Virus record (IMG/VR): IMGVR_UViG_2737471843_000003
Location: 1-14,020 of that record
Length of the DNA: 14,020 nt
Direction: 5' to 3' (one strand)
Source of the DNA: a virus
Taxonomy: Duplodnaviria > Heunggongvirae > Uroviricota > Caudoviricetes
The translations under genes and the position numbers were made by a program. Below are positions 7,306 through 9,939 of this stretch, piece after piece (the stretch's first letter is position 1; each line of letters opens with the position of its first letter). The notes under the pieces were generated by a model, which worked only from the letters and a program-made list of their open reading frames with translations, did no database searches and was not told the DNA's origin.

Positions 7306-7476
7306 TTAAAGTTCGTGTGCCATCTGGTCTTTTTCGGCACAGATTTCACTACAATATTTTTTCATTTCCGTCGTTGGTATAACTCCACGCATGAAATGAA
7401 GTGGTCTTGTAATGATTTTGCTTTCTTCAATTTCTTTATTGCAAAGGTGATAAGCACATTTTATTTTCTTAGTCAT
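7306..7476 (-). CDS. ydaE: Small Cys-rich protein, 56 aa, YdaE-like
   Basis: Not in the ORF track because it is under 60 aa. Hand translation gives [56 protein letters not shown]. Its ATG overlaps the kilR TGA stop (ATGA). Its size and position match Rac ydaE. Confidence 0.6.
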   Translation of the reverse strand: MTKKIKCAYHLCNKEIEESKIITRPLHFMRGVIPTTEMKKYCSEICAEKDQMAHEL

Positions 7477-7697
7477 CACCATGACTCCGCCTTTACAGGT
7501 AAACCATCACGACCGAGGAAGACTTTAATCATGCGGTCAGTAATGCATGTTTTTGTGGTCAGGTTACGAATATAAAGTTTTCGCTTTTTAATATTGTTTG
7601 CCGAGGCGATATATGTCCGACCTTCATGAAGAACATAATCGCCAGGAGTCACACACTGACGTGGTATTTCATCAGTTCCGAAGTGATGAGCAATCAT
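7476..7697 (-). CDS. kilR: KilR-like cell-division inhibitor, 73 aa
   Basis: Track ORF 7476..7709. The ATG at 7697 is preceded by GGAG and gives a 73-aa protein beginning [15 protein letters not shown], recognised as Rac KilR. Confidence 0.75.
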
Positions 7698-8106
7698 AAT
7701 TATCTCCATTTTTACAAATGAATTTTGTCGATGCGGTGCCTGGTGCCTCCAGGTGACGTTAACCAGTTAACAATTAACGCCGGATATTTCACCCATAACT
7801 CTGCTACGAAGGACAATAGCTTTTTAACTGTTCCGCGTGCGCTTAGCCGCATTCACCGCATCACAAAATTCACTTTAAAAAGGGGCGGCAGGGCAGCCAC
7901 GGAGTAGAACTGATGCCGCCAAAGACTACACACAGCAATGTCGTTATTTACAACCGGAGGCGCACTCCCACCATTTAAATTTAACAGACAAAACCGACTC
8001 TTTATGAATACCGGAAATGCGCCTTCGTGTTGTGCGCCTGTCTTTTTACCACTTCAGGCTCGGTGGTATACTGGAGTTCTCACACAACCAGTAATAAGGT
8101 ATTCCT

Positions 8107-8301
8107 ATGGATAATAAAGACAAAGCCTGTCTACTTGCTTTAGCTTTCAGCATCAGATCGCAGCGAGAAACAACTCATCAATAATTTTTCTCGGAAATCG
8201 AGAATGCTGAGAATGAGTTTTTGTCACTACTCAATGAACGTGATGCTAAAAAAAGCGCCGATTCACTTAAGGCTTGGGCGAAACTAGGCTCTTCAAAATA
8301 A
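8107..8301 (+). pseudogene. Small ORF interrupted by an in-frame TAA: 25 codons, stop, 38 codons
   Basis: ATG at 8107 gives MDNKDKACLLALAFSIRSQRETTHQ, TAA at 8182-8184, then in the same frame FFSEIENAENEFLSLLNERDAKKSADSLKAWAKLGSSK ending at TAA 8299-8301. An extended -10 (TGgTATACT, 8064-8072) lies upstream. Its 3' end overlaps the convergent 72-aa gene. Confidence 0.3.
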
Positions 8302-8485
8302 TTGCTTCTGTAGCGGCATGAACAACTGTTTTTGCCGCCTCTTCAACTTCCTTGTCTGGACGACCAGCCTTTACTTTTTCTGCAATGACCTCCAGCACAG
8401 TTGGAAGAACCTTGCTAATAAGCATGGCTGCCACATCTTTGCTGCACAATTGACCGTTAATAACAACCAGATCTTCACCAACCAT
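8267..8485 (-). CDS. Hypothetical small protein, 72 aa
   Basis: Track ORF 8267..8542, whose first codon is TTG. The internal ATG at 8485 is preceded by AAGGGGA. It is the first gene downstream of the candidate pL-like promoter. Function unknown. Confidence 0.45.
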   Translation of the reverse strand: MVGEDLVVINGQLCSKDVAAMLISKVLPTVLEVIAEKVKAGRPDKEVEEAAKTVVHAATEAIILKSLVSPKP

Positions 8486-8660
8486 CTTTTTTCCCCTTAA
8501 CGCCGGGTGGCGGAACGTTTTATCTACTGCGCTTTGTATCAATCAACAACTGCCGTCATGTTCGTATGCCTCAGGCTGGCTACTTAGCCCTATTCAGTGG
8601 CTGGATAACTCGAGGTATTGTCCTGCCGTTCTCTGGTGGGGCGTTGTTTGGATATGGCAA

Positions 8661-8689
8661 ATGCTCACATATCGTGAGTGTTTTGTCAA
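8661..8689 (-). promoter_or_regulatory. Candidate pL-like leftward promoter with an operator palindrome in its spacer
   Basis: On the minus strand: TTGACA (plus 8684-8689), 17-bp spacer, GAGCAT (plus 8661-8666, weak -10 with TG upstream). The perfect palindrome CTCAC-N5-GTGAG at 8664-8678 overlaps the spacer and -10 and matches the operator motif found between the repressor and ydaS. Confidence 0.4.
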
Positions 8690-8730
8690 CTCAATATGTG
8701 AACAATGTTGCTTTTGGATTTTTGATGGAC

Positions 8731-8765
8731 AAAAAAAAGCCCTCGCTAATAGCGAGAGCTTTTTG
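8731..8765. terminator. Rho-independent terminator downstream of the repressor gene, bidirectional shape
   Basis: A8 (8731-8738), GCCCTCGCT (8739-8747), loop AAT, AGCGAGAGC (8751-8759), then TTTTT. One mismatch in the stem. Confidence 0.6.
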
Positions 8766-8790
8766 ATTGGAATCGAGGGAGATTAAAGGC

Positions 8791-9180
8791 TTAGGAGGAT
8801 TTTTTCTGTTGCCTGCTTCTTAGATATTTTTCCACATACTCATCAAGCTCTTGAAGACGGATTTCGAACAGATCAATCATGCGTGCTTGTTCCGATCCTG
8901 GGAGCTGATTAAACAGTTCTAGCATTTTTTTCTGGTTATCATTTAACCACGAGTAAGTGTTTTCCTGTTCACCGAACATTAATTCTGCGGGGGAAATGCC
9001 TAGTACCTGGCCGAGGATGATCGCATCCTCAGCCCCCACACTCCTGGTGCCAGCTTCGTAGTTAGCAATACGAGAAGAACCTGACCAACCACATAGTTTT
9101 GCCAGGTTTCCCATACTTAATCCTCGATTTAGGCGAGTGGCTTTTAGTCGCTCGCCTATTTGTTCTGCAATGGTTTTCAT
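8791..9180 (-). CDS. XRE-family HTH prophage repressor (cI/RacR-like), 129 aa
   Basis: Track ORF 8791..9285. The HTH region is LSMGNLAKLCGWSGSSRIANYEAGTRSVGAEDAIILGQVLGISPAEL. I prefer the ATG at 9180; the track start at 9285 is a TTG that would overlap the ydaS start. The gene is divergent from the Cro-like gene. Confidence 0.8.
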   Translation of the reverse strand: MKTIAEQIGERLKATRLNRGLSMGNLAKLCGWSGSSRIANYEAGTRSVGAEDAIILGQVLGISPAELMFGEQENTYSWLNDNQKKMLELFNQLPGSEQARMIDLFEIRLQELDEYVEKYLRSRQQKKSS

Positions 9181-9274
9181 AGCTCCGATTTTATCACGAT
9201 GTGTGAAATTAGCGGTACTCACATATCTGTAGTTGATCTTGCTCACGAAATGTGAATAATAGAAACAGGAGGTA
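9181..9274. promoter_or_regulatory. Divergent promoter/operator region with three operator-like sites at ~24-bp spacing
   Basis: TCACGATGTGTGA (9194-9206), CTCACATATCTGTAG (9218-9232, half-site match) and TCACGAAATGTGA (9243-9255). Rightward promoter: TTGATC (9233-9238), 16 bp, AATAAT (9255-9260). Leftward -10 TAAAAT (plus 9188-9193) sits 7 nt from the repressor ATG. Confidence 0.6.
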
Positions 9275-9277
9275 ATG

Positions 9278-9520
9278 ATGAACAAAATTTCAACATATCG
9301 AAAACAGCTTGGGCTGTCTCAAAGACAACTTGCTGTTCAGTTAGGGTGGATACAAAGCCGACTGGCAAATTACGAAGCAAATTTTCGTACCCCTGGGCTA
9401 GAGGAGTGCAGAAAAATTGTTTCTACCCTTAATCGGCTTGGCGCTCATTGTGGACTTGACGATGTATTCCCCCCAGACGGTAAGCATAGCGAAAACAGCA
9501 TAGGAGCGGTTGATTCATGA
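9278..9520 (+). CDS. ydaS: Cro-like HTH protein, YdaS-like
   Basis: Track ORF 9275..9520. AGGAGG at 9267-9272 favours the ATG at 9278. The HTH region is LGLSQRQLAVQLGWIQSRLANYE. It is the first gene of the rightward operon and its stop overlaps the ydaT start (ATGA). Confidence 0.7.
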   Translation: MNKISTYRKQLGLSQRQLAVQLGWIQSRLANYEANFRTPGLEECRKIVSTLNRLGAHCGLDDVFPPDGKHSENSIGAVDS

Positions 9521-9939
9521 AAATCAGGCATGAGCATATCGAATCAGTGTTGTTGGCCCTGGCAGCCGAAAAAGGGCAGGCGTGGGTCGCTAACGCAATT
9601 ACTGAAGAATATCTGCGCCAGGGGGGCGGCGAATTGCCCCTTGTACCAGGCAAGGACTGGAACAATCAGCAGAATATCTATCACCGTTGGTTGAAAGGTG
9701 AAACGAAAGCGCAAAGGGAAAAAATTCAGAAACTGATCCCTGCGGTTCTGGCAATTCTTCCGCGCGAGCTGCGTCACCGACTCTGCATCTTCGATACCCT
9801 GGAACGCCGTGCATTACTGGCGGCGCAGGAAGCGTTGAGTACGGCAATTGATGCGCATGATGATGCAGTCCAGGCCGTTTACCGGAAAGCACATTTCAGC
9901 GGTGGTGGGTCGCCCGGCGATTCTGTCGTAGTGCATTGA
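9517..9939 (+). CDS. ydaT: YdaT-like protein, 140 aa, reported as a toxic prophage protein
   Basis: ORF track 140 aa. I recognise the sequence MKIRHEHIESVLLALAAEKGQAWVANAITEEYLRQGGGELPL as Rac YdaT from memory. It is translationally coupled to ydaS. Confidence 0.75.
   Translation: MKIRHEHIESVLLALAAEKGQAWVANAITEEYLRQGGGELPLVPGKDWNNQQNIYHRWLKGETKAQREKIQKLIPAVLAILPRELRHRLCIFDTLERRALLAAQEALSTAIDAHDDAVQAVYRKAHFSGGGSPGDSVVVH

Follow-up and report, generated by a model that had tools for sequence, protein, structure and literature searches.

The DNA analyzed here, a window of 14,020 nucleotides, is an E. coli prophage of the Rac type, inserted beside ryeA/sdsR. Its minus strand encodes integrase, RalR/RalA, recT, recE, kil, and the DicF sRNA. 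At the immunity region, the order on this strand is repressor, terminator, promoter, leader, and early genes (DicF, kil, recET), with ydaE-like and racC-like genes placed between kil and recE by the annotations of near-identical records. On the plus strand, a cro-like gene and ydaT diverge from the repressor gene. The features that concern us are collected in Table 1. Elsewhere in the window, the sRNA genes SraC/RyeA and SdsR/RyeB are found by the integrase gene at the left end of the prophage (463-607) and probably mark the neighborhood of the attachment site, and the RalA antitoxin sRNA of the RalR/RalA system is found at 2169-2347. The DicF homolog stands upstream of kil in the leftward operon, a location that resembles that of kilS in K-12 Rac.

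Table 1. Positions of the immunity-region and leftward-operon features in the window, with the evidence for each.
Feature	Position	Strand	Basis
Repressor gene, 129 aa, DicA-like, XRE-type HTH	8791..9180	-	Pfam HTH_31 and HTH_3; PHROG repressor/regulator families
Right operator region, three sites	9193..9256		reading and pattern matches
Candidate rightward promoter TTGATC-16-AATAAT, operator 9242-9256 in spacer and -10	9233..9260	+	promoter scan
Cro-like HTH gene	9278..9520	+	Pfam HTH_3; 100% identical to the L004-type Cro-like protein
ydaT	9517-9939	+	Pfam/PHROG searches
Bidirectional intrinsic terminator between repressor gene and promoter	8731..8764		RNA fold
OL2, candidate second operator	8688..8702		half-site conserved in relatives
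-35 hexamer TTGACA of the candidate leftward early promoter	8684..8689	-	direct reading; TTGAC(A/G) kept in relatives
Spacer, 17 bp; final TGT (8669-8667) supplies the extended -10 TG	8667..8683	-	direct reading and pattern search
OL1, perfect palindrome CTCAC-N5-GTGAG, overlapping spacer and -10	8664..8678		reading, pattern statistics, about 40 of 44 distinct related loci
-10 hexamer GAGCAT, 3/6 matches to TATAAT, A2 and T6 present	8661..8666	-	direct reading
Predicted transcription start	8653..8655	-	position of the -10
Leader (5'UTR), about 170 nt, conserved	8486..8655	-	matches in E. coli genomes
72-aa gene without annotated function, first in the leftward operon	8267..8485	-	phrog_23495, E=6.5e-50; PGAP call in near-identical genomes
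DicF sRNA and its terminator (7900-7885)	7883..7934	-	Rfam RF00039, 61.6 bits; terminator scan
kil	7476..7709	-	phrog_294, E=4.6e-37; annotations of near-identical records
recE	6856-3707	-	annotations of near-identical records
recT	3707-2604	-	annotations of near-identical records

A Pfam search of the 129-aa repressor returned HTH_31 and HTH_3 and no further domain. The protein aligns with DicA at 29% identity along its full length (residues 1-125, E=6e-15); this similarity, an HTH at the N terminus, and a short C-terminal region with no LexA/S24 peptidase domain in Pfam allow it to be classed from its sequence as a DicA-type (short, non-S24) repressor. RacR was rejected as a homolog, as the sequence comparison gave no similarity, and a scan of genome contigs with the repressor returned no useful relative. 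The HTH portion (residues 1-74) shares 58% identity with the N-terminal domain of the S24-type cI of VT1-Sakai and mEpX1, and the right operator region of mEpX1 also carries sites with a CAC-N5-GTG core (ATCACgttgcGTGTT and CACACaatttGTGAT), which suggests a DNA-binding domain common to cleavable and non-cleavable repressors. Within the 5' part of the repressor coding sequence there is a 13-pair inverted repeat, TAGGCGAGTGGC-TTT-TAGTCGCTCGCCTA (9130-9158), flagged on the plus strand by the terminator scan and absent by eye from the equivalent stretch of the repressor gene in another immunity type (L004, below). The terminator that follows the repressor gene folds strongly in both directions (minus strand, -20.2 kcal/mol, z -6.6, with a U8 tail; plus strand, -17.3 kcal/mol, z -5.8), and therefore the promoter beyond it should be insulated from transcription of the repressor gene.

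The region 8661-8707 reads aatgCTCACatatcGTGAGtgttTTGTCAActcaatatgtgaacaatg on the plus strand. Read on the minus strand, it consists of TTGACA, the 17-bp spacer aaacactcacgatatgt, and GAGCAT; the same spacer may also be written aaacaCTCACgatatGT, with the palindrome CTCAC-atatc-GTGAG. A preliminary description of this DNA had proposed a perfect -35 with a 17-bp spacer on the minus strand and a perfect palindrome inside that spacer. Both the hexamer and the spacer length are exactly as described. The palindrome is likewise exact, with half-sites CTCAC at 8664-8668 and GTGAG at 8674-8678, but it is not fully contained in the spacer: it takes up spacer positions 6-17 together with the first 3 nt of the -10. 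That -10, GAGCAT, had not been named and was identified here; the TG of an extended -10 is at 8669-8668. TTGACA occurs once on the two strands of the 14-kb window against 9.9 expected, and the combined pattern TTGACA-N14-TGn-nAnnnT has its single match in the window at this site. Sigma70-like matches number 5 in the whole window against 18.1 expected, and promoter-like sequence is thus strongly depleted in it. A generic promoter/consensus scan of the window did not list the candidate at 8661-8689, because its -10 is weak, and we therefore relied on targeted patterns and on comparison with relatives. The promoter stands 102 bp past the repressor stop codon (8791), with minus-strand genes ahead of it; it would fire from a point 3' of the repressor gene, away from that gene and into the early leftward genes.

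On the other side of the repressor gene, the right operator region comprises ATCACgatgtGTGAA at 9193-9207, CTCACatatcTGTAG at 9218-9232 (with one good half-site), and CTCACgaaatGTGAA at 9242-9256, centered at 9200, 9225, and 9249 and hence spaced by 25 and 24 bp. The preliminary description had held that the palindrome to the left matches the operator motif at 9194-9255, and a pattern derived from the right side bears this out. HTCAC-N5-GTGAD, built solely from the repressor/cro-like intergenic sites 9193 and 9242, has three matches in the window (9193, 9242, and 8664) against 0.10 expected, a count reached in none of 200 shuffles, and 8664 (OL1) is the only match that did not serve to build it. 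With one mismatch or fewer, CTCAC-N5-GTGAG matches the 14-kb window twice (8664 and 9242) against 0.28 expected, and CTCACGAWATGTGAR matches it twice against 0.00 expected. Read in the direction of each promoter, OL1 (CTCACGATATGTGAG) and the site at the rightward promoter (CTCACGAAATGTGAA) are identical at 13 of 15 positions, and the placement is alike, since each promoter has its operator starting 3-5 nt past the -35 and reaching 2-3 nt into the -10. Counting exact words common to the left and right operator regions is noisy for the window itself (a 10-nt word is the longest, and 8-10 nt is reached in control regions) and is informative only across a set of immunity types. OL1 thus appears to belong to the same operator class as the right operators and to overlap the core promoter, in keeping with the proposal that operators flank the repressor gene in a lambdoid arrangement.

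A candidate promoter for the repressor gene itself may be seen in TAAAAT at 9193-9188 on the minus strand, 7 nt upstream of the repressor ATG, with a poor -35 (9181-9216). Such a layout points to an activator-dependent, PRM-like promoter with almost no leader, on which the operator 9193-9207 is superimposed; the leaderless status of the mRNA is uncertain, because GGAG is found 2 nt before the ATG.

A second, candidate operator, OL2, is centered 24 bp upstream of the center of OL1. Its good half-site (8698-8702) reads GTGAA on the plus strand and, on the minus strand, TTCAC, which becomes CTCAC in the near-identical phage record PP818812; the other half is degenerate, overlaps the -35, and seems to have been sacrificed to it. 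Upstream of OL2, no third operator was visible on reading the window, unlike in the group of loci whose repressors are ~60% identical, so that the left side of the window has one full site (OL1) and the half-site OL2.

We then compared loci whose repressors are 98-100%, 84%, and ~60% identical to that of the window. The order 3' of the repressor gene is kept in all groups: terminator, YTCAC, TTGAC(A/G), five variable bases, YTCAC-N5-GTGAR, and the -10. OL1 is at the same place in about 40 of the 44 distinct related loci. The YTCAC half-site of OL2 falls exactly 8 nt before the -35 in the 100, 98, 84, and ~60% groups, and its conservation supports OL2 as a second candidate operator in the window. 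The -10 starts inside the right half of the operator as GAGCAT in the 98-100% and 84% groups and as GAAACT in the ~60% group, where an extra full third site lies 24 bp further upstream. The T before GTG, which gives the TG of the extended -10, is invariant in 35 distinct relatives, while the intervening bases, the flanks, and the central N5 except its last T vary. The rows of this alignment were selected on the -35/operator motif, and part of the invariance is therefore forced; the TCAC of OL2, the T before GTG, and the last base (T) of the -10 are invariant without being forced by the selection. The left operator region is a rare one: of 5,426 complete E. coli genomes, 10 contain it. Phage record PP818812 has the immunity region as a whole. 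By name, this record (PP818812.1) is Actinobacillus phage vB_Apl-pPE4, and it carries an E. coli Rac-type region (recET, kil) with an identical repressor and 97-98% DNA identity; its host label looks doubtful.

To compare across immunity types, loci were collected from IMG/VR by a conserved element 5' of the first leftward gene, CCCCTTAACGCCGGGTGG, which gave about 18 types. In most of these, the best leftward sigma70-like site is at the equivalent position. Measured to the conserved SD-proximal element as an anchor, its distance is 160-172 nt in most long-leader types and mostly 54-65 nt in the short-leader, Qin-like types. The script passed over the L004 type on account of a -10 without A2; inspection by eye showed TTGACA-17-TTTAAT in the equivalent place, with a perfect AACACgaaatGTGTT exactly where OL2 is in the window. 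In most types, the promoter zone shares words of 10-23 nt with the type's own repressor/cro intergenic region, as Rac does with its RacR-type ATTAGGC repeats and Qin-like loci do with their TTAGTCATGGCTAA sites. Taken together, the positions and the shared words indicate that the position of the promoter is largely constant and that the operator changes with the repressor. The preliminary description had proposed looking for a conserved motif at the same position in related prophages; once this was done, the promoter and operator proved to be kept in diverged relatives and in most immunity types.

The same comparison places the promoter at a mosaic junction. Prophages of other immunity types show a break in homology to the window at 8656/8657, five bases past the -10, which is the predicted start, and the promoter-operator appears to mark the left boundary of the exchangeable immunity module. 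On the right, homology to O103/APEC-type prophages (comparison with L004 and L005, 98.7%) resumes exactly at the ATG of the cro-like gene (9278). Between L004 and the window, the Cro-like protein is 100% identical, the repressors are 64% identical, and the outer bases of the operators differ (AACAC in L004, CTCAC in the window) around a common CAC-N5-GTG core; therefore, the exchanged module excludes cro. The recognition-helix region of the Cro-like protein (QSRLANYE) is closer to that of the L004 repressor (QSRIGNYE) than to that of the window repressor (SGSSRIANYE).

Downstream of the junction lies the leader. In a megablast search of complete genomes, the segment 8490-8656 matched many of 194 matching E. 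coli genomes, and other immunity regions stood alongside it in the loci examined. The leader is common to ~18 immunity types and to prophages with different first genes; the first leftward gene itself differs between relatives. Blocks of it (GGCAGGAC, AGTAGC..GGCATAYGAA, GCGCAGYAG, and GTTCCG) persist beside repressors that are ~60% identical, and a small hairpin just 5' of the SD (8497-8508, CGCC-ACCC-GGCG) shows the compensatory variants CGCC/GGCG, CGTC/GACG, and CGCT/AGCG. No significant fold was found for the leader (MFE z=0.18; RNAalifold -7 kcal/mol with 2 covarying pairs), Rfam gave no match for it at E<=1, and no nut site was recognized in it by reading alone. Because the leader is common to at least 18 immunity types and has kept blocks and a compensatory hairpin, it could conceivably be an unrecognized cis-acting element, either a nut-like or N-independent signal that carries transcription past the DicF terminator or a translational control, but we regard this as improbable.

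Close equivalents of this arrangement are known. In Qin, deletion of dicA raises dicBp activity 22-fold, expression of the antirepressor Rem induces dicBp and leads to filamentation that requires both DicB and DicF, and the transcript begun at dicBp is the one from which DicF is processed (PMC10448788). The DicA operator Oc is TTGTTAGTCATAACTAACAA (PMC3441716). By our reading of the sequence, dicBp lies directly 3' of dicA as TTGACC-17-TAATCT, with the Oc-matching TTAGTcatgGCTAA in its spacer and -10. As in Qin, the early promoter of the window directly follows a short DicA-type repressor gene and has its operator in the spacer and -10, the same small hairpin and SD motif precede the first gene, and DicF is downstream in the operon. 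However, the window repressor is just 29% identical to DicA, the operator is CTCAC-N5-GTGAG here and TTAGT-N4-ACTAA in Qin, the leader is ~170 nt here and ~60 nt there, and kil/recET take the place of dicB/ydfD.

In CP-933P of E. coli O157:H7, the promoter PL933P, with operators OL1-3, is repressed ~100-fold by PaaR2 and likewise ~100-fold by the Cro-like YdaS (PMC8630535). This prophage is also Rac-like, with ydaS/ydaT in the right arm, operators that resemble those of the rightward promoter, and a promoter beyond the 3' end of the repressor gene or operon. It differs from the window in having the paaA2-parE2 toxin-antitoxin genes between the repressor gene and the promoter, a different operator consensus, and three operators against one full site and one half-site here. 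The equivalence of the candidate promoter to dicBp and PL933P is positional, and by analogy the window repressor would be expected to repress it.

The resemblance to K-12 Rac extends along the whole gene order (int, ralR, recT, recE, kil, repressor, ydaS-like, ydaT) and to a homologous leader, and between racR and ydaG, at the equivalent position, there is TTGACA-17-TATAGT with RacR-type repeats (ATTAGGC...). Unlike these features, RacR is unrelated in sequence to the window repressor. A limited literature search found no experimental study of the racR-ydaG promoter.

Phage lambda has three full operators, a RecA-cleavable CI, N/nutL antitermination, and 2.3 kb between OL and OR. Like lambda pL/OL, the element in the window forms the left edge of the exchangeable immunity region: operators of the same class flank the repressor gene, the proximal one overlaps the promoter, and the neighboring one is ~24 bp off. 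Unlike in lambda, the repressor is HTH-only in Pfam, no N/nut was recognized, and OL and OR are separated by ~0.55 kb.

We are confident, though short of certain, that 8661-8702 serves a Rac-type lambdoid prophage, whose repressor is DicA-like, as its leftward early promoter-operator (pL/OL). This reading is favored because the motif is exact and non-random, the architecture is that of the rightward promoter, the context is lambdoid, a mosaic junction falls at the site, the elements are conserved, and equivalents are known. Every sequence-level prediction that followed from the proposal of a pL-like promoter with an operator to the left of the repressor gene has held.

From the sequence, we infer as follows how the promoter acts, how the repressor binds and cooperates, and how far the transcript extends. 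RNA polymerase with sigma70 would use TTGACA, the 17-bp spacer, and TGn-GAGCAT on the minus strand and would start near 8654. The transcript would contain the ~170-nt leader, the 72-aa gene, and DicF, and, if the DicF terminator is read through, kil, recE, recT, and beyond. In the lysogenic state, the 129-aa repressor would sit on OL1 as a dimer and exclude polymerase, because OL1 overlaps both the spacer and the -10. A weaker OL2, centered 24 bp upstream and overlapping the -35, would probably be bound cooperatively, and the Cro-like protein probably uses the same sites. The terminator at 8731-8764 would end repressor-gene transcripts before they reach the promoter. Once the repressor is lost, polymerase would have access to a promoter whose -35 is perfect, whose spacer is optimal, and whose -10 is extended.

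How far this transcript reaches is where the preliminary description is at its weakest, as its placement of the whole recombination and kil operon under the candidate promoter is an inference. An alternative accepts the promoter and operator as real and proposes that the transcript is short (leader, 72-aa gene, and DicF), ending at the DicF terminator, so that kil/recET are not meaningfully controlled. An intrinsic terminator does end DicF (7900-7885, minus strand) and separates kil/recET from the promoter, Pfam and PHROG gave no annotated function for the small ORFs tested on the stretch from the promoter to kil, and the leader contains no structured or Rfam-known RNA. On the other hand, the genes are contiguous and co-oriented, and a scan of the minus strand from 8650 to 640 found no other sigma70-like site, although the same scanner also missed the candidate promoter. 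Furthermore, DicF in Qin comes from the dicBp transcript, and the filamentation induced by Rem needs both DicB and DicF (PMC10448788). We consider the short transcript unlikely, but plausible enough to be kept in view.

The remaining alternatives concern what the operator does. The site might serve mainly as a distal looping partner for the right operators, ~530-580 bp away, and tighten repression or autoregulation with little transcription of its own. PaaR2, from the same prophage family, octamerizes, its authors raised looping (PMC8630535), and the -10 here is weak. Yet the perfect -35, the optimal spacer, and the TG of the extended -10 have been conserved along with the operator, most immunity types have promoter-like hexamers at the equivalent position, and dicBp and PL933P are active promoters. 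Moreover, looping is compatible with promoter function and the two are not mutually exclusive; as a replacement for the promoter reading, looping is very unlikely.

We give just as little weight to the proposal that the Cro-like protein (9278-9520) or some other factor, and not the 129-aa repressor, is what mainly binds the palindrome. YdaS, which is Cro-like, represses PL933P as strongly as PaaR2 does (PMC8630535), and the HTH of the Cro-like protein in the window is related to that of the repressor (42% identity over 43 residues). However, the Cro-like protein of L004 is 100% identical to that of the window, and the operators differ (AACAC and CTCAC) along with repressors of 64% identity; therefore, the operator flanks track the repressor and not Cro. 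Binding by both proteins would in any case be the expected lambdoid situation and does not conflict with a pL/OL element. Finally, it is scarcely credible that the palindrome arose by chance, that it acts as an RNA hairpin or terminator, or that the site belongs to the 66-codon plus-strand ORF spanning it (8566-8766): the pattern statistics (0.28, 0.10, and 0.00 expected) argue against chance, the 5-bp hairpin that the palindrome can form reaches merely -6.5 kcal/mol (z -1.1), and the ORF has no Pfam or PHROG match, was not called by PGAP in a near-identical genome, and is not conserved as a protein, because the mosaic junction falls inside it.

A pL/OL element is a known kind of element, ordinary for lambda-like prophages, and the one described here brings no new principle; it is a new member of that kind and belongs to a further, rare immunity specificity. 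For the rare DicA-like repressor, the comparison yields a testable operator consensus, YTCAC-N5-GTGAR, and for the prophage it fixes the left edge of the immunity module. In practice, these findings can be used to annotate Rac/Qin-type prophages, in which the promoter is mostly at a predictable distance from the conserved leader. In the prophage studied here, the candidate promoter is likely the switch for the expression of DicF, Kil, and RecET.
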